From positions 533,707-597,706 of the forward strand of contig JACKOP010000001.1 of the NCBI GenBank assembly GCA_024234165.1: a stretch of DNA of 64,000 nt, in the 5' to 3' direction. The notes beneath the pieces are model-generated. The model worked only from the letters and a program-made list of their open reading frames with translations, had not been told where the DNA came from and ran no database searches. The stretch comes from Pseudomonadales bacterium (GTDB taxonomy: Bacteria; Pseudomonadota; Gammaproteobacteria; Pseudomonadales; UBA5518). Both the position numbers and the translations under genes were made by a program. Each line of letters begins with the position of its first letter. Positions within the stretch are counted from its first letter, which is position 1. Of the stretch, positions 1,037 through 44,645 are shown piece by piece.

Positions 1037-3361
1037 CTACATTGCCAAACGCAACCCAATCCAGGCTGCTCGCGGAGCGCCAACACCGATGAACCGGGCG
1101 TTTTTGTTTTCTTTCAACCCCAGTCTTTGTAATACTTCACCGGTTTCGGCCCAGGCACCGAAGTTGGCGTAATCGCGGTCGAATAAGTTGTTGATTCGAC
1201 CGAAGAAGACTACATGTTTGTTGAAGCGGAATTCGCTGCGTAGATTGAAAATGACGAAAGCTGGGATCTTGGGGGTCAGGTTGGCTTCGTCGCCACGCAA
1301 GTATTGCGAACTGTTGTAGTTGATGTCGAATCCAAATGTCCATTTTGGAGCAATATCATAGTCCGCGCTGAACTTGGCCTGATGCGCGGGGATACTAGGA
1401 ATTTTGCTGCCGGGGCGAACTTGCGTGACGCCATCCACCGCATTAGGGTGAGCACTGTTCGGACTGCCAAAGGTGGATTGGTAAGTGGCATCGATGAAGG
1501 TATAATTGGCCGTCCAGCGCATGCGATCATCGAAAAACAAACCTGATAGACCCGCTTCCACGCCCTGACGCTGGGTTTTACCGACATTTTCGAAATACCC
1601 CATGCCGTTGACGGCACCGTTACCCTGCCAAAGAATGTCGTTTTTGTTGATGGCATGAAAAAAACCGGCGTTCCAATGTATGCGACCAAACGGTAGGTGT
1701 TTCAAATAGCCGCGAAAACCCGCTTCCCAGCTATTGACTACTACCTGTTCCAATGGTGGATCGGCCACGAAGGCATTCGGTAGTTTACAAGGATTGTTTG
1801 AGTCCGCACAGCTCAACTCCATTGGGGTCGGTACCCTAGACGATTCACTATAGTTACCATAAAACGTCAGCTCAGGCATGAACGCATAGATCAAACCAGC
1901 AGCCAGATTGATACGGTTGAAGGTGTGATAGCCAGTCAGATTCTCATCTGGATCGTCGCCCGGAAATTGATCTTTCAACTCCAGATGCGTTATGTTGTAG
2001 CGACCAGAAGCGGTCACATCCAATTTATTGGTTACGGATAGGTTCTCGATCAGGAATACGCCGTAATTATTGGTCTCGGTATTCAAACGTACTCGAGATT
2101 CCTGCAGTAACACGCCGCCCGCTCTGACACCGCGATCACTAGTCAAGTTACCCAGCTCGGTATCGGCACGATAATGTGTCGTACTGTAATCATAACTGAT
2201 CCCGCCGATCAACCGGTTGTTCATTTCCAAAATCTTGTGATGAAAAACGTTTTGCAACACAAAACCGAAGGATTGTTGCTTGGTTTCCGACGTGTTGATG
2301 GAGCCGCCTTCCAATGACTCGTCTTCTAACACCCAATTACCGTCCGTCGCCACCAAAGGCTCGTCACCTTCACACAAAAATTCGATTCGATCGATCTCGC
2401 AACCATCAAATTCGCTGCCATCGCCGTTATAGGTACTGATCTTATTGCGACGGTAATAGGCCATGCCGGACAACTGGCTCTGATCGTTTAACCAGGTATC
2501 GCCGTCCATCGACACCATGAACAAATGGTTACGCGTCAGATCGGGATGGGTAAAGACCTTGTTCCGACCGAAGGCCAGCAACTCTTCGGGAATTGCGCCA
2601 TTACCGCGCAATTCGTTTTCGGTGCCGGCGAAATTCAAATCCAGGCTGGATTGACGACCACGCCAGCTCAAAGTACCGAACCCGCTCTTGACCTCGCTAC
2701 GCGAATGATCGCGCCAACCTTCCTCGAACCAATCATTGAAGTCAGCAAAGTAGCCCCAGGTGCCATTATTCCAGCCACTGCTTAGTTCTTCCGAATGCCT
2801 GTCCCAGGAACCGCCCTGTAGTTCTATTTGATGTTTGGGCGACGAAAAGCCAGTCTTGGTATTAATGGTGATAGCTCCACCCAAGGCGTTCAAACCGAAG
2901 GCTGGGTTGGAAGCGGGCTGCAGGGTCATGTTCTCGATGGCACCCTGTGGAATCAAATCCCAGTTGATCATGTCGCCAAAAGGCTCGTTGAAACGAACGC
3001 CGTTCACATAGACAGCCATACCTGCCGGCAAGCCCATCAGCGACGACGCGCTGAAGCCGCGATATTGAATATCCGGCTGCAAGGGATTGTTTTGCGCATC
3101 GTTGATATTTACGCTACCCATGTAGCGATTCATGTAGTCTGCCAGCGATATTGCCTGTGACCGTTGCAGCCCTTCGGTCGTGGTAGTTTGCACATTAGCG
3201 GGAATTTTGTTGATATTTACACTGCTGGATTGTAACGGTGATACCGTCACTACTTCGATATCCTCCAATGACTCAGCATTACTGATCACTTCTTTCGCGA
3301 TGGTTTCCGGCTGCGGCAATATTACAAACCAGGTTAACAATCCGAAGGCAAATTTCTTCAT
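1037..3361 (-). CDS. TonB-dependent outer-membrane receptor
   Basis: 775-aa ORF with a signal peptide, a plug region (DIEVVTVSP, NVQTTTTEGL, IQYRGF) and a long beta-barrel. Visibly AT-rich compared with its flanks. ATG at 3361 is preceded by aagagg. Confidence 0.85.
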   Translation of the reverse strand: MKKFAFGLLTWFVILPQPETIAKEVISNAESLEDIEVVTVSPLQSSSVNINKIPANVQTTTTEGLQRSQAISLADYMNRYMGSVNINDAQNNPLQPDIQYRGFSASSLMGLPAGMAVYVNGVRFNEPFGDMINWDLIPQGAIENMTLQPASNPAFGLNALGGAITINTKTGFSSPKHQIELQGGSWDRHSEELSSGWNNGTWGYFADFNDWFEEGWRDHSRSEVKSGFGTLSWRGRQSSLDLNFAGTENELRGNGAIPEELLAFGRNKVFTHPDLTRNHLFMVSMDGDTWLNDQSQLSGMAYYRRNKISTYNGDGSEFDGCEIDRIEFLCEGDEPLVATDGNWVLEDESLEGGSINTSETKQQSFGFVLQNVFHHKILEMNNRLIGGISYDYSTTHYRADTELGNLTSDRGVRAGGVLLQESRVRLNTETNNYGVFLIENLSVTNKLDVTASGRYNITHLELKDQFPGDDPDENLTGYHTFNRINLAAGLIYAFMPELTFYGNYSESSRVPTPMELSCADSNNPCKLPNAFVADPPLEQVVVNSWEAGFRGYLKHLPFGRIHWNAGFFHAINKNDILWQGNGAVNGMGYFENVGKTQRQGVEAGLSGLFFDDRMRWTANYTFIDATYQSTFGSPNSAHPNAVDGVTQVRPGSKIPSIPAHQAKFSADYDIAPKWTFGFDINYNSSQYLRGDEANLTPKIPAFVIFNLRSEFRFNKHVVFFGRINNLFDRDYANFGAWAETGEVLQRLGLKENKNARFIGVGAPRAAWIGLRLAM

Positions 3362-3364
3362 CAA

Positions 3365-3449
3365 AACCTCTTGTAAAACGCATGAGGTAGCGTGGTTTTT
3401 TGTAAAGGCGTGCGAGAAGGAAAGGAGCGTGGGCGACCATTTCTAACAT
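3365..3449 (+). mobile_element. Diverged terminal fragment of an IS-X-like element
   Basis: cctcttgtaaaacgcatgaggtagcgtgg... parallels the transposase-proximal end of IS-X (33336-33425), roughly four fifths identical by eye. Confidence 0.7.
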
Positions 3450-3707
3450 GGCGCATTTGTGCAAGTTGGTGGCGATATAAACGCATCCCACGGCTGGCAC
3501 ATGCCGAGACAGCGGACACTCATCGGGCGGGCTTCTCGTGAAGGCGGTTTGAAAAACGGGAGAAACGAACGCAAAAAACCCGATATCCCGAGGCCGAAAT
3601 CGGCCTCTCGAATCGCGCTGGATGACGACTCAACCACCGATAGCGAGGGTGAGTTGTTCAAAAATATCCTCCGCCGAAGAATTGTGGGTAGGTAACACGG
3701 ATTCAGG
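3450..3707 (+). mobile_element. Solo 3'-terminal fragment of the IS1380-family element
   Basis: Aligns to 28113-28379, the right end of the complete copy. Ends with the same terminus ggtaacacg.attcagg. Confidence 0.8.
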
Positions 3708-3726
3708 CGACCCAGCGCCATATCAT

Positions 3727-3829
3727 TGTCTTGTCTTCCAGTTCCACTGGACCCGCTTGACCCGGTTTTGTGAGAGATCAAACCGGGCCGTGTCGGTCAT
3801 GTCCGGCGGCATAGTCGCCATCTCGCATT
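3727..3829 (-). mobile_element. Terminal fragment of IS3-family element IS3-Y
   Basis: tgtcttgtcttccagttccactggacccgcttgacc... matches 14389-14491 of the full element including its terminal TGTCTTGCC inverted repeat. Confidence 0.75.
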
Positions 3830-3931
3830 GATGCCGAACCCATGGCGATACTCCTCCAACACCACTTCGTTGAAGCAGAGCATCGCGACGGTTCAGACGG
3901 GATAACAGAACGGTGTGGTTTGGACGGTTAC
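3830..3931 (-). mobile_element. IS66 left-end fragment (IR-L plus first codons of tnpA)
   Basis: The reverse complement equals 12058-12160 (gtaaccgtccaaaccac.ccgttctgttatcccgtctgaacc ... atgggttcggcatc). Confidence 0.8.
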
Positions 3932-3984
3932 AGGAGTTAGCCATGAACCTGATCGCTCGGAAACAATGGGGTTGAGGGATCACT

Positions 3985-4025
3985 TACAAATCTGATGCTT
4001 GCCCGCAGGCATTTTGCAGGATCGT
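3985..4025 (+). mobile_element. Short remnant of an IS5-family transposase 3' end
   Basis: acaaatctgatgcttgcccgcaggcattttgcagg parallels gcgaatctgatgctggctcgcaggcattttgcggg of IS5-a (about 8130-8165). Confidence 0.4.
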
Positions 4026-5906
4026 CTACTTACCGTCCACCGCGAACACCAGCAATGCGTTGCCCGGCTTGCCCCAGAACGGTGCGTAGCCGGAATTGAC
4101 GAACAGTCTGCCGTCGGCAAGCACCACGCCGCCCTGCGCCAGCGAACCGCCGCGCGCAATGGTACCGTTGACGGCCGGGTAGTTGCCGTACGTGTCCACA
4201 TCCCAGAGGATGCGGCCACTGGTAGTATCCCACGCACGCAGGTGCGCATCCAGCGATCCTGCGAACACCACCCCCGGGATCACAGTGACCGCCTGCATGA
4301 AGCCTCCGGCGCACTTGTCCTCACCCCAACTGCACGCGGCCGAACCGGGTTGTACGGTATTCCACACAATTTCGCCGCTCGCAATGTCGATGGCTGCGAT
4401 GCCATTCGGCCCAGCATCGGGCGTAGGCACGAGATCGCCAGTGTAGGCGGCGTACACACGTGATGTGTCGGCCGCAGAACCCCACACCAGACCACCGATC
4501 GGAGAGGACTGACCCAGTTTGTGGCTCCACAGCACCGCGCCCGCGCGGTCCGCATCGAGCGCCCACAGCACGCCGGACTTCTGCGGTGCAAGCAACACAC
4601 GGCGGCCGTTGGGCAGCACGCGCAAGATCGGCGGTGCTCCGAAATCCCAATCCCCGCCGAGCGGATCTGGGCAGTTGTGGCCGTCACCTCCGTGGGTGCC
4701 CACACCGCAGCCGCCGATGAAGTTGTCCTTCGACGTGAGTTGTCGGATCCACTTGCGCGCGCCGCTGGAGAGATCGAAGGCGACCACCGCATCGGTACCT
4801 TCGGCGTCGGCATTCGTGTAAGAATTGCCGGTGGCAACGAACACCTCACCGTGTGCGGCATCGATGGTTGGTGGCGACCAGATCGCGCCGCCGGCGGGTC
4901 CAAACCGCGCCTTGCCGGGTTGCGGATTGGGGAACGGCCGCGGCTCGTCAACGACGTAACTCTTCCAGAGCAGTCGACCTGTGCGGGCATCGAGGGCGCT
5001 GAGGCTGCCGCGGAAGGTGCAGCAGGGATAATCTTCCTGCATCGCCAGCCCTTCCTCGCTCGAAGATGCCGTCACATACAGCCGTCCGTCATGAAACACT
5101 GGACTGCCGGTCAGTCGAGTAGCGACGTGGGCATCGATCTTGAACTCCCACCGGTGCTCGCCAGTGCGTGCATCGAGCGCGTGCATTATGCCAGCGTCGT
5201 CACCGATGAAAGCGGTGAACTCTCCGGGGGTCGTCTCGGCGACGACCACGCCGGCGCGGGCCGAACGGCCGAGATCCCGATGCCAGTACATGCACCCGGT
5301 GGCTGCATCAAGCGCCAACACCATACCCGTGTGCGTAGACACGAACACCCTGCCCGCCGCAATTGCTGGTTGCCCATAGACCGTATCGCCGGGATAGGCG
5401 AAGGCCCACACGAGCGCGAGCCGTGGCACCTCGGTAGCCTTCAGGCCGGATGTCGGATGGTAGCGCCCGTTGTCAGGGCGGTAGCCCCAGTTGCGCCAGT
5501 CGTCTGGCTGCAGCACGAAGGGCGGGTTTCTCGCGGCGCAGAGGTTTACCACCGGGTCCGCCGCTGGCGCCGATTCGATCTTGCCGGTCAGGAACAGCGC
5601 CAGCGACTGGCGGTCCGTCAGCGATAGCCCCTGACCCTGCTGCATCATCACGCCGCCGTCCAGCGCGTTGATCACGGTCTCGGGTGAGCGTCCCGCGAGT
5701 TGCAGACGCGTGGGGACGCGCTCTGCGGGTTTATCGTGACACTGTGCACAGCGTGCAGCATAAAGTGCGCCGCCGTGCTCCGTATCAGGCGTAGGATTCA
5801 GCGCGTGCACTGATGCGGCAAACAACCCGAACAGGAGTGCAGCGACTGCGCAGCTTTGAAGCCGTGATCGGCGATCACGCAGGCGGTGCCGTGCGAAAGA
5901 GCTCAT
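4026..5906 (-). CDS. PQQ-dependent dehydrogenase with N-terminal cytochrome c domain (polyvinyl-alcohol-dehydrogenase-like)
   Basis: Signal peptide, CAQCH heme-binding motif, then repeated beta-propeller segments (ALDA.TG...W). Start ATG at 5906 overlaps the GST stop (ATGA). Confidence 0.75.
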   Translation of the reverse strand: MSSFARHRLRDRRSRLQSCAVAALLFGLFAASVHALNPTPDTEHGGALYAARCAQCHDKPAERVPTRLQLAGRSPETVINALDGGVMMQQGQGLSLTDRQSLALFLTGKIESAPAADPVVNLCAARNPPFVLQPDDWRNWGYRPDNGRYHPTSGLKATEVPRLALVWAFAYPGDTVYGQPAIAAGRVFVSTHTGMVLALDAATGCMYWHRDLGRSARAGVVVAETTPGEFTAFIGDDAGIMHALDARTGEHRWEFKIDAHVATRLTGSPVFHDGRLYVTASSSEEGLAMQEDYPCCTFRGSLSALDARTGRLLWKSYVVDEPRPFPNPQPGKARFGPAGGAIWSPPTIDAAHGEVFVATGNSYTNADAEGTDAVVAFDLSSGARKWIRQLTSKDNFIGGCGVGTHGGDGHNCPDPLGGDWDFGAPPILRVLPNGRRVLLAPQKSGVLWALDADRAGAVLWSHKLGQSSPIGGLVWGSAADTSRVYAAYTGDLVPTPDAGPNGIAAIDIASGEIVWNTVQPGSAACSWGEDKCAGGFMQAVTVIPGVVFAGSLDAHLRAWDTTSGRILWDVDTYGNYPAVNGTIARGGSLAQGGVVLADGRLFVNSGYAPFWGKPGNALLVFAVDGK

Positions 5907-7104: not shown

Positions 7105-8345
7105 GGGAGAAACAGATTTATTCGACACTCGAGCAGCACGCGCGAGCGTTGGATCATCGATAATACGCACATCACGCAGCAGCACGGTGTTCTCCCTCAT
7201 GAAGCAGATCAGTTTCTCGGATGCAGAGTTCGCGGCGAAGAAAAAAGTCACGCGCCGTGAACGCTTTCTGACGGAGCTTGATCGCCTGGTGCCGTGGCGT
7301 GTGCTGGTTGCACTCATCGAGCCGTACTACCCGAAGAGCGGAGAGCGTGGACGCCCTCCGATCGGACTCGAGCGCATGCTGCGCATGTATGTGGCTCAGA
7401 ACGCCCTGGGGCTGTCCGACGAAGGTATCGAGGACGCCATGTACGACAGTGGTTCGGTACGACACTTCGTGGGCGTGGACCTCGCGATCGAGTCGGCTCC
7501 CGATGCCACGACGCTGCTCAAGTTCCGCCGCCTGCTCGAAGCGCATGGGCTGACCCGCAAACTCTTTGGCGCGATCAACGCTCAACTCGAGTCTGTCGGA
7601 TTGCTGCTGCGTCAGGGCTCCATCGTCGATGCCACGCTGATCGCGGCTGCCCCTTCGACGAAGAACCGCTCCAGATCGCGTGACCCCGAGATGCATCAAT
7701 CGAAGAAAGGAAACCCGTGGCATTTCGGCATGAAAGCCCCTGTGAGCGTCGATGCGGACTCTGGCCTGGTGCACACGGTGGTGGGCACGGCAGGAAACGT
7801 GTCCGATGTCACCGTGACCGAGCAGTTGCTGCATGGCGAGGAAGAAGTCGTGTTCGCCGATGCGGGCTACACCGGTGCGCCCAAGCGTGACGGGTTGACC
7901 AACAAGGAAGTCGAATGGCAGATCGCCGCCAAGCGTGGTTCGATCAAGAAGCTGCCCGAAGGAAGCCCCTATCGCATGGCCCTCGAGGCATTGGAGAAGG
8001 CCAAGGCCAGCATGCGTGCGAAGGTGGAGCATCCGTTCTGCATGGTGAAGAACCTGTTCCGTCACCGCAAGGTGCGTTACAAGGGATTGGCGAAGAACGA
8101 AGCGCAGCTCTTCACGCTGTTCGGGTTGGCGAATCTGATGCTGGCTCGCAGGCATTTTGCGGGCGTATACGGGAGAGGTACGTCTTGAAAACGGGAAATC
8201 GGGAGAAAACCTCCCGATTTGAGGTGAAAATGGGCTGATTTCGTCAGTTTCAGGTGAAGAAACGGCAGCCAGCGCAAAAATTCGCGTTGATGGCAATAGT
8301 TTTCGCTTTGAGTCGACGGATTTCATGGATAGATCAGCGTTTCCC
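7105..8345 (+). mobile_element. IS5-family element IS5-a, copy B (intact)
   Basis: 1.24 kb. Ends gggagaaacagatttat / gatagatcagcgtttccc form imperfect inverted repeats flanked by TA. Boundaries are good to about 5 bp. Confidence 0.85.
7187..8188 (+). CDS. IS5-family DDE transposase
   Basis: 333 aa with a DUF772-like N-terminus (RGRPPIGLERMLRMYV..NALGLSDE), DATLI, DAGY and a C-terminal KVEHPF...VRYKGL..N motif. Confidence 0.9.
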   Translation: MFSLMKQISFSDAEFAAKKKVTRRERFLTELDRLVPWRVLVALIEPYYPKSGERGRPPIGLERMLRMYVAQNALGLSDEGIEDAMYDSGSVRHFVGVDLAIESAPDATTLLKFRRLLEAHGLTRKLFGAINAQLESVGLLLRQGSIVDATLIAAAPSTKNRSRSRDPEMHQSKKGNPWHFGMKAPVSVDADSGLVHTVVGTAGNVSDVTVTEQLLHGEEEVVFADAGYTGAPKRDGLTNKEVEWQIAAKRGSIKKLPEGSPYRMALEALEKAKASMRAKVEHPFCMVKNLFRHRKVRYKGLAKNEAQLFTLFGLANLMLARRHFAGVYGRGTS

Positions 8346-8358
8346 TAACGCTGCGACA

Positions 8359-9141
8359 TCAGCCGTTGAAACGCGGCGGGCGTTTCTCGATGAACGCGCG
8401 CGTGGCCTCGGCGAAATCGGGGCCTTTCATCAGCCGCTCCTCAACCTCGGTCTCGCGCCATAATACCTTGTGGCCGTCGGCCTCGCACATGTTGTCCCAC
8501 ACCAGTTGTTTTGTCGCGATCAGCGACGACACCGGATGTGCTGCGATTTCGGTGGCAAGCGCCACCGCCGCATCCAACAGCTCTTCGTGCGGCACCACGT
8601 CGGTGACCAGGCCGATACGTTCGGCTTCGCGCGCATCAATGCGCCGCGCTGTGAGCTGCAGCCGCAACGCGTGCGCCAACCCCACCATCTGCACCAGCAG
8701 CCGACTGCTGCCCATGTCTGGCATCAACCCCATGCGCACGTGACGCTCCTCGAACTGCGCCCGATCAGAGGCGATGCGCACGTCGCACGACAGGATCAGC
8801 GTGATGCCGCCGCCAACCGCCAACCCATTCACCGCCACCACCACCGGCTTCGATTCGCGCATCATCTCCAGCCAGCGCAGTTGTGAGCGATAATTCATCG
8901 GCTCGCCGTTCGGCGGTGGTTCGGGATCCTCCCAGTCCTGCACGTCAAGTCCGGCGCAGAACGCGCGTCCCTGTCCGGTCAACACAATCACGCCGACGCT
9001 GCTGTCGCGATTGTAGCGCTCAAACACGTCGTAGAGCTCGTGCACCAGCTGCATGCTCAAGGCATTCAGCCGCTCGGGGCGGTTCAGCGTCACGATAGCT
9101 ACGCGCCCACGTTGTTCAGTCAATATAGTTTGGTATGTCAT
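8359..9141 (-). CDS. Enoyl-CoA hydratase/isomerase family protein
   Basis: RVAIVTLNRPERLNAL, GQGRAFCAGLD and AVNGLAVGGG motifs. gggaggg lies upstream of the ATG at 9141. Confidence 0.85.
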   Translation of the reverse strand: MTYQTILTEQRGRVAIVTLNRPERLNALSMQLVHELYDVFERYNRDSSVGVIVLTGQGRAFCAGLDVQDWEDPEPPPNGEPMNYRSQLRWLEMMRESKPVVVAVNGLAVGGGITLILSCDVRIASDRAQFEERHVRMGLMPDMGSSRLLVQMVGLAHALRLQLTARRIDAREAERIGLVTDVVPHEELLDAAVALATEIAAHPVSSLIATKQLVWDNMCEADGHKVLWRETEVEERLMKGPDFAEATRAFIEKRPPRFNG

Positions 9142-9167
9142 CGTCCGCCCTCCCGTCGATTCCTTAT

Positions 9168-10127
9168 TCAGGCCGCGCCGAAACGCTCGCCCACCATCGC
9201 TTCCGAAGCCGTCCACAACCCGAGCGCCATCGCGCCATCGAGTGCGTAGGATTTCACGCCCTCGGCCGAACCTCTTGCGTCGTTGATCGCCGCGACATGG
9301 CAATCCTCGAGATAACAGCCACCACGCCCCGCCAGCTCCGGCGCCGTTGCCGCATACACTGTCGTAGCCGCTCCCTCGGCCACGGTCTTGCGCTGTAGCT
9401 TGCCACCCGGGCTGTGAGCATCAACTGCCGCGAGCTCGGCAGCGTCCAGATGGCGATTGAGCTCGGTCGGGATCGCGCCCGGATGAACCGCGTAGGCATG
9501 CACGCCATCAGGGCCGAAGCGACGGTCAAACTCCACCGCGAACAGCACATTCGCCGTCTTCGACTGCCCGTAGGCGATCCACGCGTTGTACGCTCGACGC
9601 TCGAAGTTGAGGTCGTCAAGCTGCACACCGCAGACGCGGTGCCCGATCGAGCTGAGCGCCACTACCCTGCTCGGTGCCGCCCGCAGCAGCGACGGCAGCA
9701 GCAGCCCGGCCAGCAGGAAATGCCCCAGATGATTGCTCGCAAGCTGCATCTCAAAACCCTCGACCGTGCGCTCTAGCGGGCACGCCATGATGCCTGCATT
9801 GTTGATCAGCAAATGGATCGCCAGATGCCTCCGCAGCAGTCGCGCAGCGCAGGCGCGAACGCTCGCCAGCGATGCCAGGTCGAGTCGTTCGAACTCAAGC
9901 GCCTCGCTCCCAGTGGCTACGCGAATCCGCTCCAGTGCCACACTCGCCTTCTGCTCGTTGCGCGCAGCTACCACCACGTGCGCCCCAGCAGCCGCCAGCG
10001 CGCGCGCGGTTTCCTCACCGAGCCCACCGGAGGCGCCAGTGACCACTGCCACCCGCCCCCTCAGATTGATACCCTGCAACACCTCATCGGTGGTCGATCT
10101 AGCACCGAAACACCTGTTCCCGCTCAT
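9168..10127 (-). CDS. Short-chain dehydrogenase/reductase (retinol-dehydrogenase-like)
   Basis: VAVVTGASGGLG, NNAG and YGQSK motifs. ggagg lies 8 nt upstream of the ATG at 10127. Confidence 0.85.
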   Translation of the reverse strand: MSGNRCFGARSTTDEVLQGINLRGRVAVVTGASGGLGEETARALAAAGAHVVVAARNEQKASVALERIRVATGSEALEFERLDLASLASVRACAARLLRRHLAIHLLINNAGIMACPLERTVEGFEMQLASNHLGHFLLAGLLLPSLLRAAPSRVVALSSIGHRVCGVQLDDLNFERRAYNAWIAYGQSKTANVLFAVEFDRRFGPDGVHAYAVHPGAIPTELNRHLDAAELAAVDAHSPGGKLQRKTVAEGAATTVYAATAPELAGRGGCYLEDCHVAAINDARGSAEGVKSYALDGAMALGLWTASEAMVGERFGAA

Positions 10128-10148
10128 AAGTGCCTCCACCTGTCTCCA

Positions 10149-19077: not shown

Positions 19078-19971
19078 CCACCAGTGGATCCTCGCTTCCA
19101 GACCTTCGCCGCTTTTTTGCACGATGTGCGTGGCAACTCCCCGCGAACCATTCACAAGAAGCTCGTGCATCTGTCGGAGTTCTTCCATTACCGGGGCAAT
19201 CGGGGCGTCGCGGGGCTGCCTATCGGCCTGCCGGAGATCGACGCGTATATCGTTACGTGTCGTCAACGCTTCGCGCGCAGAACGGTCGCGGGCATCTGTT
19301 CGACGATCCGCAGTTATCTACAATTCTTGCACGTCACTGGTGTGATCGATGTCGATCTCGCCACTTCGGTGCCGGCTCCGATCATCCGCACCGACGAGCA
19401 ACCACACCGCGCATTGCCATGGACAGATGTACAACGGATTCTGCATGCGGTCGACCGTGCCTGCCCGAAGGGGCGTCGCGATTACGCGCTGTTGCTGATG
19501 ATGAGCGTCTACGGGCTCGGAGCCGGAGAGGTCATCCGCATCTCGCTCGATGACATCGACTGGCAAGCAGCAAAGTTCCGGATCAAGCGTCCGAAGACCG
19601 ACGTGGAGTTTCAACTACCGTTGCTGCCACCAGTCGCTCGCGCGCTCCTCGACTATTTGAAGCGTGGACGCCCGGCGTACACGCCGTCACGCCACTTATT
19701 CGTCACAATGCGCACGCCATTCAAGTCCCTGGCCTGTTCAACCACGGTGTGGTGGATTTTGCATTCGACAGCGCAGCGAGCCGATGTCACAGCGCCGTTT
19801 CTCGGCACGCATGCACTGCGTCACACGCAGGCCTGTCGGCAGCTCGAGCTCGGTGTTGCGCCCAAGATCATCGGAGACATTCTCGGCCACCGTGACCCGA
19901 AGTCCACGTCCGCCTACCTGCGCGTCACCAGCGATCGCCTTCGGGACTTGTCGCTGCCGGTTCCGGTATGA
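19078..19971 (+). pseudogene. RIT recombinase A (ritA-like), C-terminal part
   Basis: Catalytic region RDYALLLMMSVYGLGAGE...HALRHTQA...LGHRDPKSTSAYL. The 4-bp ATGA overlap with the next gene is intact. Confidence 0.75.
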
Positions 19972-20936
19972 ACGCTCTGGCAGCGGCGCACCTTGGGCAG
20001 GAAGTCACCGCCTTCCTGAAGTACAAACGCGCGCTCGGGCATTCGTACCGACGCGGCGAGGCGACGCTGCGCAGCTTCGAGCACTTTGCCCGCCACGGTA
20101 GAGGACCGCGGTCTCGGATCGACTTGGAGGCTACGATCCGGACGTGGCTGTTACGCCGCCCCGGACGCAAGCCGGTCACCCTTGCGAACGACCTCGGCGC
20201 GGTGCGGCAGTTCTGCTTGTACCTGCGCCGTAGTGACCCCGCGGCGTTTGTGCCGCCGGTCAGTTTGGCGCCGCAGACTGAATCGCTCTACGTCCCGTAT
20301 ATTTTCTCGCTGGAGGAGATCCGTCGGCTGATCCATGCGACACAGCACTATCACGGACACAATTTCTGGCCCGAAATGTTCCGGATGTTGCTGATTGCGA
20401 CCTATTGCACGGGTTTGCGCTTGGGCGAGACAGTCCGGCTCCTGCGGTCCGATCTCGACAATGCGCGCTGGGTGCTACATATCCGTGAGAGCAAGGGGCG
20501 AAGCCGTGATGTGCCGTTCCAGGCCGACTTGGCACAGGTGTTCGCGCGCTATCTTCGCCAACGCGACGAACTGCTGCATGCCCTTGGCCGAGCGAACGAA
20601 CCGGCACTGTTTGTCGGACTGAACGGGGACGGCGTCACGGTGCGTGCGACATCGGATGCGATCCGCCGCCTTTTGCGCCGGCTGGGCATGAAGAGCCCGA
20701 TGGGCCGCTGCGGACCCCGCCCGTACGACCTGCGTCACGCATTTGCCGTCCACCGACTCACGGCCTGGTACCACGACGGTGTCGACTTGCACGCCAGCCT
20801 GCCATGGCTCTCGGCCTACATGGGGCACGTCAACGTACTCGGTACCGAAGTCTATCTTCACGCTACGGCGGAGCTGCTCGAAATTGCCGCTGATCGTTTT
20901 GCCGCGCGGTTCGCGCAGCCGGGAGGGTGGTCATGA
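19968..20936 (+). CDS. RIT recombinase B (tyrosine recombinase)
   Basis: 322 aa with TGLRLGE, DLRHAFA and MGHVNVLGTEVYL motifs. Overlaps both neighbouring genes. Confidence 0.85.
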   Translation: MNALAAAHLGQEVTAFLKYKRALGHSYRRGEATLRSFEHFARHGRGPRSRIDLEATIRTWLLRRPGRKPVTLANDLGAVRQFCLYLRRSDPAAFVPPVSLAPQTESLYVPYIFSLEEIRRLIHATQHYHGHNFWPEMFRMLLIATYCTGLRLGETVRLLRSDLDNARWVLHIRESKGRSRDVPFQADLAQVFARYLRQRDELLHALGRANEPALFVGLNGDGVTVRATSDAIRRLLRRLGMKSPMGRCGPRPYDLRHAFAVHRLTAWYHDGVDLHASLPWLSAYMGHVNVLGTEVYLHATAELLEIAADRFAARFAQPGGWS

Positions 20937-22000
20937 GCAGAGTTTGCGATGCCACTCTTCTGTCGTCGGTCGAAGCATACTTTCGCGGCTACCTGATCCA
21001 GACCCGAGGCACCAGTGCTCACACGATCCGTGCCTATCGCGACACGTTGCGACTGCTGTTCAGGTTCCTCGCCGACCGGCGCAACTGTCCGGTCGCAGAA
21101 CTTACCCTCGATGACCTTCACGTCGATGCCATCCTTGCATTCTTGGCACATCTCGAGACGGTGCGGGCCAATAGTGTCGCGAGCCGTAATGCCCGCTTGG
21201 CGGCCATCCGTAGCTTCTTCCGCCACCTTGTCGAACACGACCTGCCACGCGCCGGACAATATCAACGCGTGCTGTCGATACCGAATAAGCGAGCACATCT
21301 CGGCGCAGCGCAGTACCTCGAGCCGCCGGATGTTAAATCACTCCTCACCCAGCCCGACCGCACCACTACGGCTGGACGCCGCGACTACGCGCTGATGCTC
21401 TTCTTGTACAACACCGGCGCTCGTATCAGCGAGGCGCTCGGCGTACGCGCCGAACACCTGTCCTTGATCCTGCCGCGACGCGTGCGGCTGTTCGGCAAGG
21501 GAGGCAAGGAGCGACTGTGCCCTCTGTGGCATGAGACGACAGAGGCGCTGGCGCAACTGCTGGCAGTTGGCTCAGACTCACCCGAAGGTTACGTGTTCTG
21601 TAACCGAAACGGCCAGCAGTTGACCCGAGATGGAGCTGCATACCTGTTACGTAAATATGCGGGTATGGCAGTTCGTACCTGCCCACAGCTACGCCGCCGA
21701 CGCATCACACCTCACGTTCTGCGCCACAGCTGCGCAGTGGCACTGCTGCAGGCCGGTGTCGATATCACGGTAATACGCGACTATCTCGGACACGCCAGCA
21801 TTACCACCACCAGTCGCTACGTCGCGACGAATTTGCAGATGAAACGCGACGCACTGGAGTTATTCTGGAGCCGATCGGGACTTCTCCCGACTCGTCCGCG
21901 GCCGTGGAAGCCGAAGCCCGATGTGCTCACCTATCTCGCGTCGGTCGGATCGACGCCCCATTATTATCCGGAGCAATCAGATTGTGAAACTCGAAAATGA
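20927..22000 (+). CDS. RIT recombinase C (tyrosine recombinase, XerC/D-like)
   Basis: 357 aa with an N-terminal SAM-like domain (HTIRAYRDTLRLLFRF), RRDYALMLFLYNTGARISE, HVLRHS and LGHASITTTSRY. Confidence 0.85.
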   Translation: MVMSRVCDATLLSSVEAYFRGYLIQTRGTSAHTIRAYRDTLRLLFRFLADRRNCPVAELTLDDLHVDAILAFLAHLETVRANSVASRNARLAAIRSFFRHLVEHDLPRAGQYQRVLSIPNKRAHLGAAQYLEPPDVKSLLTQPDRTTTAGRRDYALMLFLYNTGARISEALGVRAEHLSLILPRRVRLFGKGGKERLCPLWHETTEALAQLLAVGSDSPEGYVFCNRNGQQLTRDGAAYLLRKYAGMAVRTCPQLRRRRITPHVLRHSCAVALLQAGVDITVIRDYLGHASITTTSRYVATNLQMKRDALELFWSRSGLLPTRPRPWKPKPDVLTYLASVGSTPHYYPEQSDCETRK

Positions 22001-22033
22001 GCCGAGCGTGACGCGCGCTCTGCAGCGTAACTA

Positions 22034-22063
22034 CGGATAACTGCAGACTCGGGATAATGCGCC
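22034..22063 (-). repeat. RIT right inverted repeat
   Basis: cggataactgcagactcgggataatgcgcc is the exact reverse complement of 13880-13909. Confidence 0.9.
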
Positions 22064-22091
22064 TTATCCAGAGATCTGGATAAGGCGCATT
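22056..22091. repeat. Perfect 17+2+17 palindrome spanning the RIT right junction
   Basis: aatgcgccttatccaga ga tctggataaggcgcatt. The outer 8 nt of the right arm are the tnpC target sequence. Confidence 0.9.
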
Positions 22092-22446
22092 GCCGCCGAG
22101 GCTTCGAGCAGGCCCGAGATGCCGAACCGCAGGCGGCGGCCGAGGCGCTGGCGATGATTGCCGCGCTGTACCGGCACGAGCAGATCATCCGGGAACAGAA
22201 CCTGGACCGGGAACACAAGCTCGCTTACCGAACACAGCACAGCGAGCCGATCGTCAACCGCTTCTGGCACTGGTGTGACGACCAGTGCCACCGCATGGAT
22301 CTGTTGCCGAGTAACCCGCTTGCCAAGGCGATCCAGTACGCGAAGGCACGGGTGGCGAGTCTGCGGGTGTTCTTGTCGGATCCGGATGTGCCGATCGACA
22401 CCAACCACCTGGAGCGCAGCCTGCGGGCGGTTCCAATGGGACGGCG
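22084..22446 (+). pseudogene. IS66 tnpC, segment 2 of 3
   Basis: Continues AHCRRGFEQA...IAALYRHEQIIREQNL...DTNHLERSLRAVPMGR in frame with segment 1. Confidence 0.85.
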
Positions 22447-23056
22447 TTATGCACGGTTCACTGTTATGGAAGGTTGCGACGGCTGACGTCGGCAAAGGTG
22501 CACGACTGCGGACGGTAATAGCCAGTGCCGGAGCCGCTTCAGCCTCGTCACCTGCCATAGGTCATTCAATCGAACCTTACATAACTACAAGGCCTGCAGA
22601 GCCGCAGGATGTGATCTGTCGGCCGGTAACCGATCGACCCGGTGCCGGGTGGACTCAATGCCATCAATGCGCTCTCCTTCATCGCGAGGTCTGCCCCCGA
22701 GATAGTGAGGCGCGGTTGTCGTGCCCGAACCGGAGCGCAACGACGGTGATGTTGACGCCGGCCTGGAGCATATGCATGGCAGTCGAGTGCCGGTTGATGT
22801 GCGGAGAAACGTGCTGGGTCGCCAACTCGGAATGCTTGCGAGCAACACTTCGAATTGCTTACGGGGCGGCATGAGTACTCTCCCGTGACGATCGTGAGAT
22901 CGCCACGAAAGCAGTCCGGATTATGAAAGGTAACTCAACATAGACGGCGTGCTGCGAGTCGCGAAATACCAAGCGAAATCAAGCAGCGTCCCGGAAACCT
23001 TCCATAACAGTGAACCGTGCATAATTTCTGTTATGGAAAGCTTTCCATAACAGAAA
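22447..23056 (-). mobile_element. RIT-derived miniature element (about 0.61 kb, non-autonomous)
   Basis: 29-bp perfect inverted repeats (22447-22475 and 22996-23024) plus a 32-bp perfect palindrome (23025-23056). Inside, on the minus strand, is a decayed tyrosine-recombinase C-terminus (HINRHSTAMHMLQAGVNITVVALRFGH..ADLAMKE). Boundaries are good to about 3 bp. Confidence 0.7.
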
Positions 23057-23288
23057 AAACTGGCTCTTCTGTTGGACCGAGGTCGGTGCCGAGCGGGTGG
23101 CGGTTATCCAGAGCCTGCTGGTGAGCTGCCGCCTACAGAGCGTGGACCCATACACCTATCTGGTCGATGTGCTACAGCGCTTCAGCGTGCATCCGGCGAG
23201 TCGGGCAGTCGAGCTCACGCCGCGCGAGTGGAAGGCACGCTTCGCTCACGATCCCATGAAATCCATACCCCCCAAGTTCCGCAGCTAG
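23052..23288 (+). pseudogene. IS66 tnpC, segment 3 of 3
   Basis: RKNWLFCWTEVGAERVAVIQSLLVSCRLQSVDPYTYLVDVLQR... is the canonical TnpC C-terminus. Confidence 0.85.
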
Positions 23289-23339: not shown

Positions 23340-25037
23340 GCTAGTGGTTTGGCGGCGTCCTGGTGCCGAGTGCGCTGAAGAGTTCTTGCTGGATGGGGTC
23401 AGGCGCGTTGATGCCGCGCAGGGTGTCTTTGCCCACCTTGACCCGATGACGCTGGATGGTCTGCAGGATCTTGAGGGCTGCAGTCGGTGAATGTCCGTTG
23501 CCCGCCGCCTTGAGCTTTTGCCGCATGATCCGATGGAGCACCAGGGCCAGGAAGCAGATCAGCGCATGGGTGCGGATACGCTCGGGCAGGCGGTGATGCA
23601 CGGGAGCGATTTCGATATCGCTCTTGAGCACCCGAAAGCCACGCTTGATGTCGGCCAGTGCCTTGTAGCGGGCAATGACCTCATCGGCAGCGAGTGCGGT
23701 GTTGGTGACCAGCAGCAGCTTGCCATCGAGGCGCTCGGCGTTGGCCATCGCGGCCTCGTCGCGGTGAAAACTGAAGCGCTCCGCCGCCAGGTCTGCCTTG
23801 AGGATACGGCTGAGCCCTGCTTCGCTGACCGCCTCGCAGAAACGCAGATACGCCCTCCGGTCGGTGGACTTGCGCCCGCGCAGCGGCTGGCCTGCGTCCG
23901 CCTCGTCGAGGCGCCTCGCCATGCGCTCGCCTTCGGCCTCGATGGACGCGATCAGGGCGCGGCGCCGGGCGCTTTGCTCTGCCGCGCGCCCGGAGTCGTG
24001 CGCGACGACCAGGCGCCGCCCCTGCCACTTGGACTCGCCGACACCCGCATCGAGTGGCATGTTGGCCACCAGCTCGCCAAAGTCCGCGTAACGCCGTGCC
24101 GGCACGGCGAGAATGTACTCCACCGCCTGGCCAGTCGCGGTGCGTAGTGCCTCTACCGCGTCCAGGTTGTCGAGACTCAGCAAGCCACGATCCGCCACCA
24201 GTACCACCCGCTCGATCCGATAGCGCGCAATGGCCTTCTCGATGGCGGGCAGCAACGTGGACACTTCGCCGACATTGCCCGCATGGACTTCATGGGCGAT
24301 CGGCAGCCCCTCGGCGGTCTGGATCACACCGAGCACGAACTGGCGAGCAATGCCTCCGGTGTCCTTGTTGAGCCCGAAGGCACGCACATCGTCCACCACC
24401 GTGCCGTCCCCCTGGATACGCACCGTGGTGAGGTCGTAGAACACCACCGACAGCGATCGATCGAGCAGCGGGCGCAGTTGCTCCGCAATGACGGCCTCGA
24501 CCGCATCGATATGCTCCATCAACGCATCCATCGTTCGCAGCAGCTGGTCGTGCGTGACCGTCTCCGGCGCATCGGGCAGGCTGACCGTCTCCAGCCAGCG
24601 CAGGACGCCGAGCTTCGAGGTAGGCTCGCACAGGCGGTTGAAGACCATCGCGCGCACCAGCGCCGCCGCGTCGAACCGGCGGCGCGTGGAACGTAGCGCA
24701 CGGGACAGCGCAGACTCCAGGCCCAGTGACTGCCAGAGCTCATGGAGCAGATACACGTGCCCGAACGCCTGGGCAGCGAGGAACTGGGGTTGTCCAGGCG
24801 ACACCGTCTTGTGGCCTGCAACGCGTTGCAGGCCGGCAATCAGGGCATCGAGTGCACCGTCCTGAAGTTGATCGATCCGCCCCAGGGTGGCAATGACGCG
24901 CTGGCGCACCTTGTCGCCTTCACGGCGACCTTCGACCAGCTGCAGATACTGGCGTGGACCGCTTTGTTTGATGCGTGCATACATGGCACGACATTATAAG
25001 CGTCATTAAAGGATAAACAAGCATTAAATATAAAATA
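23340..25037 (-). mobile_element. IS1634-family (IS4-related) element
   Basis: A single large transposase gene flanked by a 10-bp direct repeat GTGGCACAAC (23330-23339 and 25038-25047). I could not recognise terminal inverted repeats, so the boundaries are provisional. Confidence 0.65.
23341..24984 (-). CDS. IS1634-family DDE transposase
   Basis: 547 aa. MYARIKQSGPRQYLQLVEGRREGDKVRQRVIATLGR N-terminus, VVFYDLTT, LVADRGL and a C-terminal YKALADIKRGFRVLKS motif. Confidence 0.8.
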   Translation of the reverse strand: MYARIKQSGPRQYLQLVEGRREGDKVRQRVIATLGRIDQLQDGALDALIAGLQRVAGHKTVSPGQPQFLAAQAFGHVYLLHELWQSLGLESALSRALRSTRRRFDAAALVRAMVFNRLCEPTSKLGVLRWLETVSLPDAPETVTHDQLLRTMDALMEHIDAVEAVIAEQLRPLLDRSLSVVFYDLTTVRIQGDGTVVDDVRAFGLNKDTGGIARQFVLGVIQTAEGLPIAHEVHAGNVGEVSTLLPAIEKAIARYRIERVVLVADRGLLSLDNLDAVEALRTATGQAVEYILAVPARRYADFGELVANMPLDAGVGESKWQGRRLVVAHDSGRAAEQSARRRALIASIEAEGERMARRLDEADAGQPLRGRKSTDRRAYLRFCEAVSEAGLSRILKADLAAERFSFHRDEAAMANAERLDGKLLLVTNTALAADEVIARYKALADIKRGFRVLKSDIEIAPVHHRLPERIRTHALICFLALVLHRIMRQKLKAAGNGHSPTAALKILQTIQRHRVKVGKDTLRGINAPDPIQQELFSALGTRTPPNH

Positions 25038-25143
25038 CGTGGCACAACATTACTTTTCTGGAAACAGGCCGAAAAAGCCTGAAATCCCGTACGCCACAGG
25101 GCTTTCAGAGGACTGAATCAGAGACGAAGTGCGGAACTTGGGG

Positions 25144-25535
25144 CACCCAGGTCGAGCTCTACCTCCCACACAGGTGTGGCCGGCAGTACCTCGGTCTTGT
25201 CGACCACCGGTGCGGTCAGCTCGACAAACAGCGCCTCGGGCCGAGCGCCCGCCACATCGGTGTTCCGGGCCTCGCGTAGTTTGCGCCGCCACAGCTCGAA
25301 GGTGCTCTTCGCCAGGCCGTGACGGGTGCAGAACGTCTGCTGCGAAACGCCGCTCGCCTCGAACTCGCTGATCAGCGCGCGCCACTGTGCCGCGCTGTGA
25401 CGCGCATACTTGCGCACAGAACCTGAACCCGTCGATGCCGAACCCATGGCGATACTCCTCCAACATCACTGCGTTGAAACAGAGCATCGCGAAGGTTCAG
25501 ACGGGATAACAGAACGGCGTGGTTTGGACGGTTAC
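25144..25535 (-). mobile_element. IS66 copy 2: left end only (IR-L plus 5' two-thirds of tnpA)
   Basis: The reverse complement matches 12058-12448. Homology stops at ctgggtgc (25144), where unrelated sequence is joined. Confidence 0.8.
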
Positions 25536-43601: not shown

Positions 43602-44645
43602 CTAATCCACGCCAGCAGCGCGCGCACCGTCACGGCGCTTGCCGCGGCGATTCTGGCGTTCCTCGAGCAGTTCCAGTCGTAACGTCAACATCCACACCGA
43701 GCCACGCGCCTCCTCGATGCTGTCGCGGCGCCAGACATGTGCCGGCTCCACTTCCACGAAGATCCATGGCCGTGCCACGTTGCGTCGATAACGCACACCG
43801 ACACCATAACCCGTCGTGAACTGATCCGGGTCCGTCTGCCCCGACACCGAAGCAAAGTAACTCAGGGCCTGCCGGGAATCGATACGGATCTGGTAGCTGA
43901 GAAGAGATCCCCATTCGGCGCCAGCGGTCTCTTCCCCATAGTCGACCTGGTTGGTCCACCGCACCATGCGATCAGTGCCGATCAGATAATCCAGGTCGAC
44001 CCGACTCAGAGCTCCGAAGCCGTCGTCCTGCTTGTAATAGAGTTTCTCGCCAAACTGCACCCGCCAATCGTCGCCGAATGTCCGCAGGTACTTGTAACGC
44101 AGGCTGGTACGCAGATCGAGCGAGCCATTGAGGCTCATCGAAGCCCAAAGCCGTGACGCACCACGATCGGACAGGCGCAACTGCAGCCCTACATCCTTGC
44201 CGCCGCTGCTTTCCGGAACGACCTCCTGGTACTCTTCGTTTTCTTCGGAAAATATCAGGCTCAGACGCTTGCTGAGTCGCGGCAGGTCGACCTTGCCGCG
44301 CAGACGCAGATCGGTGTCGACGCCATGGTCTTCGTCGAGCACCGCCTCGCCACGCAAGCGCAATATCGTATCTGCCGACTCACGGTCCGAGGTCGGCGTG
44401 CCAAAGAACGAATCCAGCCAGACTGCGAGTGTGTCGCTGTGTGACGTCACGTACTCGTAGGACGTGTCCACCCAGCTTTGCTCAGCCGACGGACAGGGAT
44501 CGTGTCCGGCGGTGCAGTCCGCATCGGGCGCCGCCGTTACCGTCAGACTGCAGAACCACAACAGGCACGGCAGCAGCATCCCGTATGGAACAACGCCAGA
44601 GCGCCGGGTTCCATCCGGCCTCGCTGGCAAACCCGGCCTGTTCAC
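43602..44645 (-). CDS. Hypothetical exported protein (possible outer-membrane beta-barrel)
   Basis: Signal-like N-terminus and repeated amphipathic strand pattern. I recognise no family. Confidence 0.5.
   Translation of the reverse strand: MNRPGLPARPDGTRRSGVVPYGMLLPCLLWFCSLTVTAAPDADCTAGHDPCPSAEQSWVDTSYEYVTSHSDTLAVWLDSFFGTPTSDRESADTILRLRGEAVLDEDHGVDTDLRLRGKVDLPRLSKRLSLIFSEENEEYQEVVPESSGGKDVGLQLRLSDRGASRLWASMSLNGSLDLRTSLRYKYLRTFGDDWRVQFGEKLYYKQDDGFGALSRVDLDYLIGTDRMVRWTNQVDYGEETAGAEWGSLLSYQIRIDSRQALSYFASVSGQTDPDQFTTGYGVGVRYRRNVARPWIFVEVEPAHVWRRDSIEEARGSVWMLTLRLELLEERQNRRGKRRDGARAAGVD

Follow-up and report, generated by a model that had tools for sequence, protein, structure and literature searches.

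A 610-bp non-autonomous RIT derivative inside an IS66 transposase gene, and the end structure and target sites it shares with full-length RITs

We describe a 610-bp insert (positions 22447-23056) in the tnpC gene of an IS66-family insertion sequence (IS) carried on a stretch of 64,000 nucleotides from a Pseudomonadales bacterium (contig JACKOP010000001.1), the whole of which is called the window below. The insert is a derivative of a RIT (recombinase in trio) element and not an autonomous RIT, since only a C-terminal RitC remnant is present and neither RitA nor RitB finds a significant match in it. It is likely that this mini-RIT is a non-autonomous miniature that kept both cis-acting ends and entered tnpC by site-specific recombination.

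RITs, described in 2009, are widespread, and to our knowledge their movement has never been reproduced experimentally. They were named in C. metallidurans CH34, where ritA1B1C1 was reported to inactivate an IS66-family tnpA (PMC2864759). Van Houdt et al. (2012) described inverted repeats (IRs) of 28-29 bp with an overlapping palindrome as well as truncated trios, and regarded RIT mobility as still to be shown (PMC3414803), and Nielsen et al. (2017) reported palindromic repeats of 47 and 51 bp at RIT ends (PMC5737581). Neither miniature RITs that retain both ends nor the X'-palindrome-X module, the hexamer rule and the defined IS66 target site set out here were described in the accessible literature, which did not include Ricker et al. 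(2013).

Boundaries of the insert and its host gene

The limits of the insert follow from comparison with an intact IS66 contig (L048, encoding protein P0001), which shares 95.4% nucleotide identity with the window tnpC over 1558 ungapped bp. The alignment runs to window position 22446, picks up again at 23057-23058, and reads ...CCAATGGGACGGCG CAATTGGCTC... across the uninterrupted site; the insert is therefore exactly 22447-23056, and the hexamer ACGGCG on its left is native target sequence. Set against the empty site deduced from intact IS66 (CCAATGGGACGGCG followed by (C/A)AA(T/C)TGG), the mini-RIT is flanked by ACGGCG on the left and CAGAAA on the right, and there is no target-site duplication. 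Joining 12897-13885, 22090-22446 and 23057-23288 heals tnpC to an uninterrupted TnpC of 525 aa, which is 96% identical to the intact IS66 TnpC P0001 and 87% to P0003, and whose C-terminal 194 residues match Pfam DDE_Tnp_IS66 (PF03050) and the IS66 C-terminal domain (PF13817). Together with the tnpA-tnpB-tnpC gene order, these domains place the element in the IS66 family.

An earlier note, made from the letters of the window alone, had recognised a 0.61-kb insert in tnpC and placed it between PMGR and (R)KNWLF. The insert stands, with the coordinates 22447-23056 given there, but (R)KNWLF is not the native reading: P0001 and P0003 both have RAVPMGRRNWLFCWTE, i.e., PMGRRNWLF, and the apparent 'RK' at the right junction is due to the imported hexamer CAGAAA. 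A placement at 22445-23054 with a native GRKNWLF was likewise rejected, because it leaves ACGGCG unexplained and the intact homologs show GRRNWLF.

The insert contains no intact open reading frame (ORF) with recombinase similarity. As the earlier note had seen, it is bounded by perfect 29-bp IRs (29/29 complementary) and carries, beside the right one, a perfect 16+16 palindrome of 32 bp (23025-23040/23041-23056) built from the IR core motif. When up to three mismatches are allowed, the IR finds only its own two arms in the window (0.00 matches expected), and the core motif CTGTTATGGAARG occurs four times there, always within the mini-RIT (0.02 expected). The components of the insert and the adjoining tnpC segments are:

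22090..22446, plus strand: IS66 tnpC middle segment (...HCRRGFEQA...RAVPMGR-R), from the healed ORF, homologs and L048
22441-22446: left junction hexamer X_L of the mini-RIT, native target ACGGCG
22447..22475, plus strand: left IR, with two direct subrepeats
22447-22454: outer subrepeat of the left IR, TTATGCAC
22461-22473: inner subrepeat of the left IR, CTGTTATGGAAGG
22593..22858, minus strand: decayed RitC C-terminal remnant, aa ~264-355 in three frames, from tblastn with RitC of related RITs and three-frame translation
22859..22995: ritA-proximal non-coding part, between the deletion breakpoint (near 22858/22859) and the right IR
22996..23024, minus strand: right IR, 29/29 complementary to the left
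23025..23030, plus strand: hexamer X', TTTCTG, reverse complement of X_R
23031..23050: core palindrome TTATGGA-AAGCTT-TCCATAA, with 7-bp arms related to the IR subrepeats and a 6-bp spacer
23051..23056, plus strand: right junction hexamer X_R, CAGAAA, element-borne and non-native to the window tnpC by comparison with L048
23057..23288, plus strand: IS66 tnpC 3' segment, (R)NWLFCWTE... to the stop codon

A RitC remnant between intact ends

RitC proteins of related full-length RITs align to two parts of the insert, with aa ~264-315 at 22706-22858 (46-54% identity, E ~1e-14 to 1e-15) and aa ~321-355, the RitC-specific C-terminal tail, at 22593-22694. The earlier note's recognition of a decayed RitC-like C-terminus is thus borne out, both by these alignments to RitC proteins and by three-frame translation. 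RitA and RitB queries from related RITs gave no significant match in the mini-RIT, and no similarity to relatives was detected in 22859-22995. The remnant reads ...VVALRFGHDN / TTTAPHYLG / ADLAMKESAL... in three successive frames where relatives read ...LGHESPTTTHQYVEADLAMKEKAL... in a single one, so that it must have suffered at least two frameshifts. The R-H...G-H box lies within the aa ~264-315 part, the middle frame shows the catalytic-tyrosine motif TTTAPHY, and the tail ADLAMKE... corresponds to the RitC-specific C-terminal helix described after the catalytic tyrosine (PMC8138268); catalytic-domain motifs and tail together assign the remnant to the RitC subfamily once the frameshifts are allowed for. 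In plasmids, every BLASTN match to it is located in gene three of an annotated recombinase trio. Of the ritC-proximal end ~412 bp are left and of the ritA-proximal end ~166 bp, while ~2.9 kb comprising ritA, ritB and most of ritC are missing.

The final codons of the remnant coincide with a terminator-like hairpin at 22593-22608 (minus strand; CCTGCGGCTCTGCAGG, then a T-rich tail), which may be a retained ritC terminator; such sites are at chance level in the region (one found, 0.8 expected).

A conserved end module adjoins one inverted repeat

The 32-bp palindrome is a conserved end structure of RITs. We scanned 185,579 species genomes for the exact pattern GTGCATAA-N6-TTATGGA-N6-TCCATAA and obtained 31 loci, 29 of them in Burkholderiales. 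All 31 show the same order, i.e., inner subrepeat, 9 bp, GTGCATAA, X' (6 bp), TTATGGA, spacer (6 bp), TCCATAA, X (6 bp) and flank, and in 28 of them X' and X are exact reverse complements of each other. The left ends of these Burkholderiales-family RITs read flank, X_L, TTATGCAC.... The same layout is present in plasmid RITs with other arm sequences and in a large RIT resident in the window, bringing to ~50 the RITs in which an IR tip is followed by 6 bp (X'), a 7-6-7 palindrome, 6 bp (X) and the target. The palindrome arms co-vary with the IR motif, one clade having TTATGGA/TTATGCA and the other TTATCCA/TTATCTG/TTATGTG, and the two-subrepeat layout of the mini-RIT IR recurs in full-length RITs (L001, L035, L024 and others).

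These observations bear on whether the palindrome could be foreign to the element, as a terminator, a host repeat resembling repetitive extragenic palindromes, or the footprint of a second, adjacent insertion. It lies outside the 29-bp IR pair and is predicted to fold, as DNA, into a hairpin of high stability (-14.4 kcal/mol, z = -5.2). Intact IS66 lacks it, however, so it arrived with the insert, and it occurs nowhere else in the window; with the module next to one IR in ~50 RITs and its arms tracking the IR motif, a foreign origin is hardly credible. The terminator version was dropped for its own reasons, since the terminator scan did not flag the palindrome, whose stem is AT-rich and not followed by a T-run.

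The strict junction pattern was not matched in three RITs (L045 from NGR234, L056 and L057). L056, on Paracoccus aminophilus pAMI8 (4305-4416/7657-7810) and not in IS66, has 112-nt IRs of 97% identity and an adjoining palindrome built differently (GGTTATGGTGCG/CGCACCATAACC), and end architecture therefore varies between RIT clades.

Two insertion sites in IS66 tnpC

The earlier note had taken two RIT insertions in one IS66 transposase gene as a hint of target preference, and relatives at the same sites strengthen this considerably. Twelve RIT-type insertions of the TTATGC-arm clade, including the mini-RIT, share one position in IS66 tnpC, in DNA encoding GR(K/R)NWLF, after the codons for G/T-R and before those for (K/R)-N-W/S/A-L-F. 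They are listed below as locus and source, X_L, X', palindrome, X_R and downstream flank:

Window mini-RIT: ACGGCG; TTTCTG; TTATGGA-AAGCTT-TCCATAA; CAGAAA; AAACTGG
L001, Sinorhizobium terangae: CCGCAA; TTGCGG; TTATGCA-GAGATT-TGCATAA; CCGGAA; GAACTGG
L035, Sphingobium herbicidovorans: CCGAAA; TTTCGG; TTATGGA-AAGGTA-TGCATAA; CCGTAA; AAACTGG
L037, Thiodictyon: TCGGAA; TTCCGA; TTATGCC-GAGCTC-GGCATAA; TCGGAA; AAACTGG
L038, Agrobacterium rubi: AAGAAA; TTGCGA; TTATGCA-AAGATT-TGCATAA; TCGCAA; AAACTGG
L044, S. meliloti pSymA: GAGAAA; TTTCTC; TTATGCA-AAGGTT-TGCATAA; GAGAAA; GAACTCA
L046, Roseibium: X_L not found; TTTCTG; TTATGCA-GAGGTG-GGCATAA; CAGGAA; AAATGCA
L058, Ensifer: GAGAAA; TTTCTC; TTATGCA-AATCTA-TGCATAA; GAGAAA; GAACTCG
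L059, S. meliloti USDA1157: GAGGAA; TTCCTC; TTATGCA-TAGATT-TGCATAA; GAGGAA; GAATTCC
L002, Skermanella, right side rearranged: CAGGAA; TTCCTG; palindrome rearranged
L036, Pseudomonas sp. MPC6 miniature: ACCCAA; TTGCGA; TTATGCA-CAGCTT-GGCATAA; ACGCAA; GAACTGG
L043, metagenome: X' TTCTTC; TTATGGA-AATATT-TCCATAA; X_R GAAGAA; GAATTGG

Some of the twelve were retrieved with a query that included tnpC flank, and the sample is to that extent biased. In an unbiased list obtained with ritC only, four of the seven RITs examined sit at the IS66 site (L001, L002, L058, L059) and three elsewhere (L003, L056, L057). A full RIT of the IS66-targeting clade on pSymB of S. meliloti ml28 (L047, ~776-4240) lies outside IS66, between polysaccharide-biosynthesis genes, at a look-alike of the IS66 site (CATTAA followed by GAATTACCTC; also CATTAA followed by GAATTACCTCTATGCAGG), with the imported hexamer GAGAAA. 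It is a natural off-target event, which argues for recognition at the level of DNA.

The codons for CWAH are a second RIT hotspot in IS66 tnpC. Four cases of the GATAA-arm clade insert there, namely the resident large RIT and those on three unrelated plasmids, of Sphingobium sp. AntQ-1 (L051), Rhizobium etli Mim1 (L052) and Marinobacter nauticus VT8 (L053). For the large RIT, the site within the C-W-A-H-x-R-R codons is GGTTGTTG/GGCGCA/TTGCCGC, and GGCGCA is found at both junctions. The Burkholderiales family inserts into what looks like a GC-rich pseudo-palindrome, GCNGC-N3-GCAGCG-RTTGCNG; when its targets are healed, no long ORF spans the junction, and a gene-specific target was dropped for this family.

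At the GR(K/R)NWLF site the rit genes lie on the tnpC strand in four elements (L035, L037, L044, L046) and opposite to it in six (the mini-RIT, L001, L002, L038, L058, L059), and in every case tnpC has the palindrome on its downstream (NWLF) side. As it stays downstream with both gene orientations, its side follows the polarity of the target and not that of the genes. This accounts for what the earlier note had registered as a discrepancy, that the palindrome is ritA-proximal in the mini-RIT and ritC-proximal in the large RIT. Both arrangements also occur in the Burkholderiales family, with ritC beside the palindrome in L010, L012, L021, L025 and L033 and ritA in L017, L024 and L032.

Junction hexamers record a previous site

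In complete elements X' usually has its reverse complement in one or both of X_L and X_R, and whenever these two are unlike, one represents the native target while the other corresponds to X'. The mini-RIT has a native X_L (ACGGCG, as in L048) and an X_R, CAGAAA, that is the reverse complement of X' (TTTCTG). L035 shows the reverse: an intact IS66 (L054, 93.6% identical to the L035 flanks) has CCGTAA, which is the X_R of this element, whereas its X_L, CCGAAA, is the reverse complement of X'. A like asymmetry is found in L038, L047, L021, L032 and L010. Intact ISAtu6 reads CTCGG/CAGAAA/AAACTGG at the same site, with a hexamer identical to X_R of the mini-RIT that encodes G-R-K with AGA for arginine. 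The imported hexamer is thus the G-R(AGA)-K version of the IS66 site, and the mini-RIT or an ancestor of it therefore came from another IS66 copy.

Both hexamer outcomes would be expected of a tyrosine-recombinase exchange across a heterologous 6-bp overlap. The RIT junctions would be heteroduplex at first and then be resolved by replication, as is known for the coupling sequences of Tn916-type elements. Similar behaviour underlies the 6-bp footprints of Tn554 and SEs, which copy 6 bp from the donor flank (PMC10214605).

The resident large RIT and its surroundings

The large RIT ends 357 bp upstream of the mini-RIT (at 22089), close to the 360 bp given in the earlier note, and its right end reads GGGATAA/TGCGCC/TTATCCA-GAGATC-TGGATAA/GGCGCA/TTGCCGC, in the same order of IR and palindrome as the mini-RIT. 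The mirrored layout that the earlier note had pointed out thus holds, as does its assignment of the two elements to different RIT subfamilies (TTATGC-arm for the mini-RIT, GATAA-arm for the resident trio). The left IR of the large RIT is far away because nested IS elements split it. Its features, with the remaining parts of the host IS66, are:

From 12146: tnpA-like ORF of the window IS66 (ORF list)
12483-12842: tnpB of the window IS66 (ORF list)
12897..13885, plus strand: IS66 tnpC 5' segment, ending ...GCW-A(H), from the ORF list, healed ORF and L048 alignment
13880-13885: X_L of the large RIT, GGCGCA, the last 6 bp of the tnpC 5' segment
13886..22089, plus strand: resident large RIT, GATAA-arm clade
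13886-13912: its left IR (IRL)
~14669-19017: nested IS3::IS110::IS5-like block splitting ritA
19021-19971: 3' part of ritA
19968-20936: ritB
20927-22000: ritC
22031-22057: right IR (IRR)
22058-22063: X', TGCGCC
22064-22083: palindrome TTATCCA-GAGATC-TGGATAA
22084-22089: X_R, GGCGCA

The mini-RIT is inert in its present context, because the only RIT in the window has arms of the GATAA type and a disrupted ritA and so cannot be its helper. Pfam identified metabolic enzymes and not recombinases at 7172-10139 and 43602-45625 (minus strand), which were therefore set aside as candidates for a second trio in the window.

The block that splits ritA consists of an IS3-family element (orfB 14669-15655 and orfA 18706-19017, minus strand), itself split by an IS110-family element (15677-16285 and 17729-18514), which is in turn split by an IS5-like element (DUF772/DDE_Tnp_1 ORFs, 16554-17625); nesting reaches five levels if IS66 is counted as host of the RIT. 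Directly after the tnpC stop codon lies an IS4/IS1634-like transposase gene (23341-24984, minus strand), beyond which there is a second, inverted partial IS66 copy (region 23341-25500). Its tnpA-like ORF (25118-25447, minus strand) is nearly identical to that at 12146, which suggests a rearrangement between IS66 copies.

Full-length and shortened relatives

Shortened members that keep both ends are found among the relatives, and miniature RITs therefore recur. The Burkholderiales family comprises six complete elements of 3480-3507 bp from IRL to IRR and three shortened ones of 2057, 1787 and 344 bp. The 344-bp element, from Hydrogenophaga aromaticivorans (L031), corresponds to positions 1-199 (96%) and 3353-3538 (81%) of a full-length RIT on an Alicycliphilus plasmid. 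At the IS66 site, a 315-bp mini-RIT on the Pseudomonas sp. MPC6 plasmid pMPC6-328K (L036, 4192-4538) keeps the last ~30 ritC codons and adjoins an IS66 KNWLF fragment, while its left flank is not tnpC; a search of plasmids for further copies returned this single copy only.

With its nearest full-length relatives the mini-RIT has the outer 8-mer and the arms of the palindrome in common, but not the inner subrepeat, which none of the 31 related ends from the species-genome scan has. A metagenome scan with the mini-RIT-specific IR yielded one true relative, a 1.5-kb contig with the IS66 KNWLF site (L043); two further matches (L041, L042) came without rit genes and were treated as chance or solo ends.

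The 281-kb plasmid unnamed1 of Alicycliphilus denitrificans Ylb10 has four matches to ends of the TTATGCAC/TTATGGA type (L019, L020, L024, L028), all with the hexamer GCAGCG and with distinct flanks sharing the consensus RTTGCTGYCG; L020 and L024 are identical in sequence and may be one site twice. The pattern suggests that such elements spread recently within this genome, with a GC-rich pseudo-palindrome as their target.

A model for entry into tnpC, and its alternatives

We suggest that the mini-RIT entered IS66 tnpC through tyrosine-recombinase site-specific recombination at the DNA encoding G-R-(K/R)-N-W-L-F, a step that we infer from the junction comparison. What it brought along would be the two 29-bp IRs, each with two recombinase-binding-like subrepeats, and the X'-palindrome-X module at the right end. 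Recombination of attL with attR would yield a circle whose junction, A2-A1-X'-P'-s-P-X-A1'-A2', forms a palindrome of ~100 bp; for the mini-RIT the predicted junction is ...CCTTCCATAACAGTGAACCGTGCATAA-TTTCTG-TTATGGAAAGCTTTCCATAA-(CAGAAA or ACGGCG)-TTATGCACGGTTCACTGTTATGGAAGG..., and the predicted empty site is CCAATGGGACGGCGAAACTGGCTC. Such a junction would offer a pair of interchangeable core sites in opposite orientation, A1-X'-P' and P-X-A1', each composed of arm, 6-bp overlap and arm and each able to recombine with the target half-site b-X-b'. Whichever core is used, the palindrome would come to lie on the b' side, downstream, while the element body could face either way. Heterology in the overlap would be tolerated, one junction keeping the target hexamer (ACGGCG on the left) and the other that of the previous site (CAGAAA on the right), and alternating use of the core sites would renew X' with the hexamers of earlier targets, giving an X' of target type in each clade. 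The mini-RIT was probably already defective on arrival, with Rit proteins supplied in trans.

The state of the two coding sequences speaks to this last point. There are at least two frameshifts in the ~270-bp ritC remnant and none, nor a stop codon, in the 1578-bp tnpC; under a Poisson model with equal age and an equal indel rate, the best-case probability of this asymmetry is ~0.006. Since tnpC has been dead at least since the insertion and yet lacks frameshifts, this indirect evidence suggests that the mini-RIT was probably defective when it arrived and was moved in trans. Decay in place is the competing account, in which a full-length RIT integrated here, later lost ~2.9 kb and acquired frameshifts, and never moved as a defective or miniature element. 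It gains from the single-copy state of the mini-RIT in the window, from the genome and metagenome scans, which returned neither another copy nor a parent with identical ends, and from the shortened RITs found, all of which are unique and single-copy and differ in their deletion end points. The frameshift asymmetry weighs against it, however, as do the perfect 29-bp IRs and 32-bp palindrome, and we regard decay in place as a serious possibility that nevertheless falls short of an even chance.

How both gene orientations came about at one site allows for another answer, in which the element inverted after integration between its IRs (attL against the IRR-X'-P' core) and no choice between two core sites was involved. 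Inversion is a standard outcome for inverted tyrosine-recombinase sites, and in the frequent cases where X_L equals X' in reverse complement, the left junction b-X-A1' and the right core A1-X'-P' stand to each other as inverted copies. This scenario is compatible with the circle model and differs from it in a single step, but inversion alone does not explain why X' tracks target-type hexamers in different clades (the IS66 GRK site has NCGNAA, the WAH site GGCGCA), and we consider it a real possibility, though less likely than not. A hairpin-ended linear intermediate, with the 7-6-7 palindrome acting as a miniature telomere-resolution site and no circle formed, is more improbable by a wide margin. 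Nielsen et al. proposed hairpin intermediates, having seen RIT DNA that was protected from exonuclease but no reads across circular junctions (PMC5737581), and the spacer is often palindromic itself (GAGCTC, AAGCTT). Against this, the analysed RIT ends show no sequence evidence for such an intermediate, many spacers are non-palindromic (GAGATT, AAGGTA, CAGCTT), and undetected circle junctions would be explained more simply by a near-perfect palindrome of ~100 bp.

Several points count against entry as a mobilised miniature and call for caution. The frameshift argument requires that indel rates be equal and that other IS66 copies have not converted tnpC by gene conversion. We deduce the circle and the double-core mechanism from junction anatomy, and in situ inversion between the IRs would explain both gene orientations as well. 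In the table of a 2023 review, the entries for RIT target specificity and movement read 'not tested' (PMC10214605), and the mobilome study had no circular RIT junction reads (PMC5737581), which may reflect the difficulty of sequencing and mapping a palindromic junction of ~100 bp. The five shortened derivatives that we encountered are each present once and have their own deletion end points, which fits sporadic deletions better than an amplifying family of miniature inverted-repeat transposable elements (MITEs). The earlier note's view of the insert as a MITE-like deletion derivative therefore stands for the deletion from a RIT and for the structure, but not for multiple copies. Neither a parent with an identical 29-bp IR (scan of the 185,579 species genomes; Joint Genome Institute (JGI) metagenome scan) nor a second copy of the 610-bp unit (window; exact-pattern scans of species genomes and JGI metagenomes) was detected. 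The species-genome collection does not contain the host genome, as is evident from the lack of a self-match.

Site-specific entry of a miniature into tnpC can be extended to RITs in general, a step that we take only tentatively, as we hold it no likelier than decay in place. RITs would then be dedicated site-specific parasites of IS66, whose clades recognise the DNA of CWAH..RR or GR(K/R)NWLF, integrate through a double core in either orientation and carry a 6-bp coupling sequence, while mini-elements of 0.3-0.6 kb transpose in trans; the 610-bp unit would have hopped, already defective, from an ISAtu6-like IS66. If this is true, the mini-RIT marks the minimal cis-requirements for RIT transposition. 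Independently of this reading, the insertions show one class of mobile elements systematically inactivating another by hitting codons of the most conserved TnpC motifs, those least free to change, with relevance for the control of IS66 copy number on plasmids of rhizobia, sphingomonads and Burkholderiales. The mini-RIT and its relatives also provide a natural minimal substrate, consisting of two 29-bp ends and the 32-bp module, along with a proposed attB of ~20 bp inside IS66 tnpC (NCGNAA-RAACTGGCT). A junction that keeps the donor hexamer and the side taken by the palindrome could serve as read-outs, and the open question of RIT movement becomes directly testable.

Comparison with known systems

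The mini-RIT resembles known RITs in its RitC-type sequence including the C-terminal tail, an IR within the range of 28-34 bp, a palindrome adjoining one end and its location in an IS66 transposase gene, but it lacks ritA and ritB and retains only ~90 frameshifted ritC codons. With MITEs it shares its shortness (610 bp), terminal IRs, the want of a functional recombinase and an origin by internal deletion of an autonomous element. Its parent, however, uses tyrosine recombinases where those of MITEs use DDE enzymes, it makes no target-site duplication and occupies a specific site, and multi-copy amplification, the hallmark of MITEs, is not seen in the window, the species genomes or the JGI metagenomes. 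A cis-mobilizable element (CIME) likewise keeps tyrosine-recombinase sites without a recombinase, and like it the mini-RIT would need a related element in trans. CIMEs derive from integrative and conjugative or integrative and mobilizable elements and have attL/attR direct repeats at tRNA-type sites, whereas the ends of the mini-RIT are IRs with a one-sided palindrome and its target is the transposase gene of another mobile element.

As in Tn916, Tn554 and SEs, the junction hexamers of RITs are heterologous, one native and one from the previous site, and the target is not duplicated. RITs differ from these elements in that the imported hexamer may be on either junction, an extra inverted copy, X', lies inside the right end, and there are three Xer-like recombinases and no Xis, TnpC or Tfp. 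The sites loxP, FRT and dif consist of two inverted arms around a spacer of 6-8 bp, and the right-end units of RITs, A1-X'-P', P'-s-P and P-X-b', are each built in the same manner as 7-6-7, with inverted arms around a spacer. What sets RITs apart is that their right end would combine three overlapping putative core-like sites that share arms, to which the target contributes what seems to be a weak half-site.

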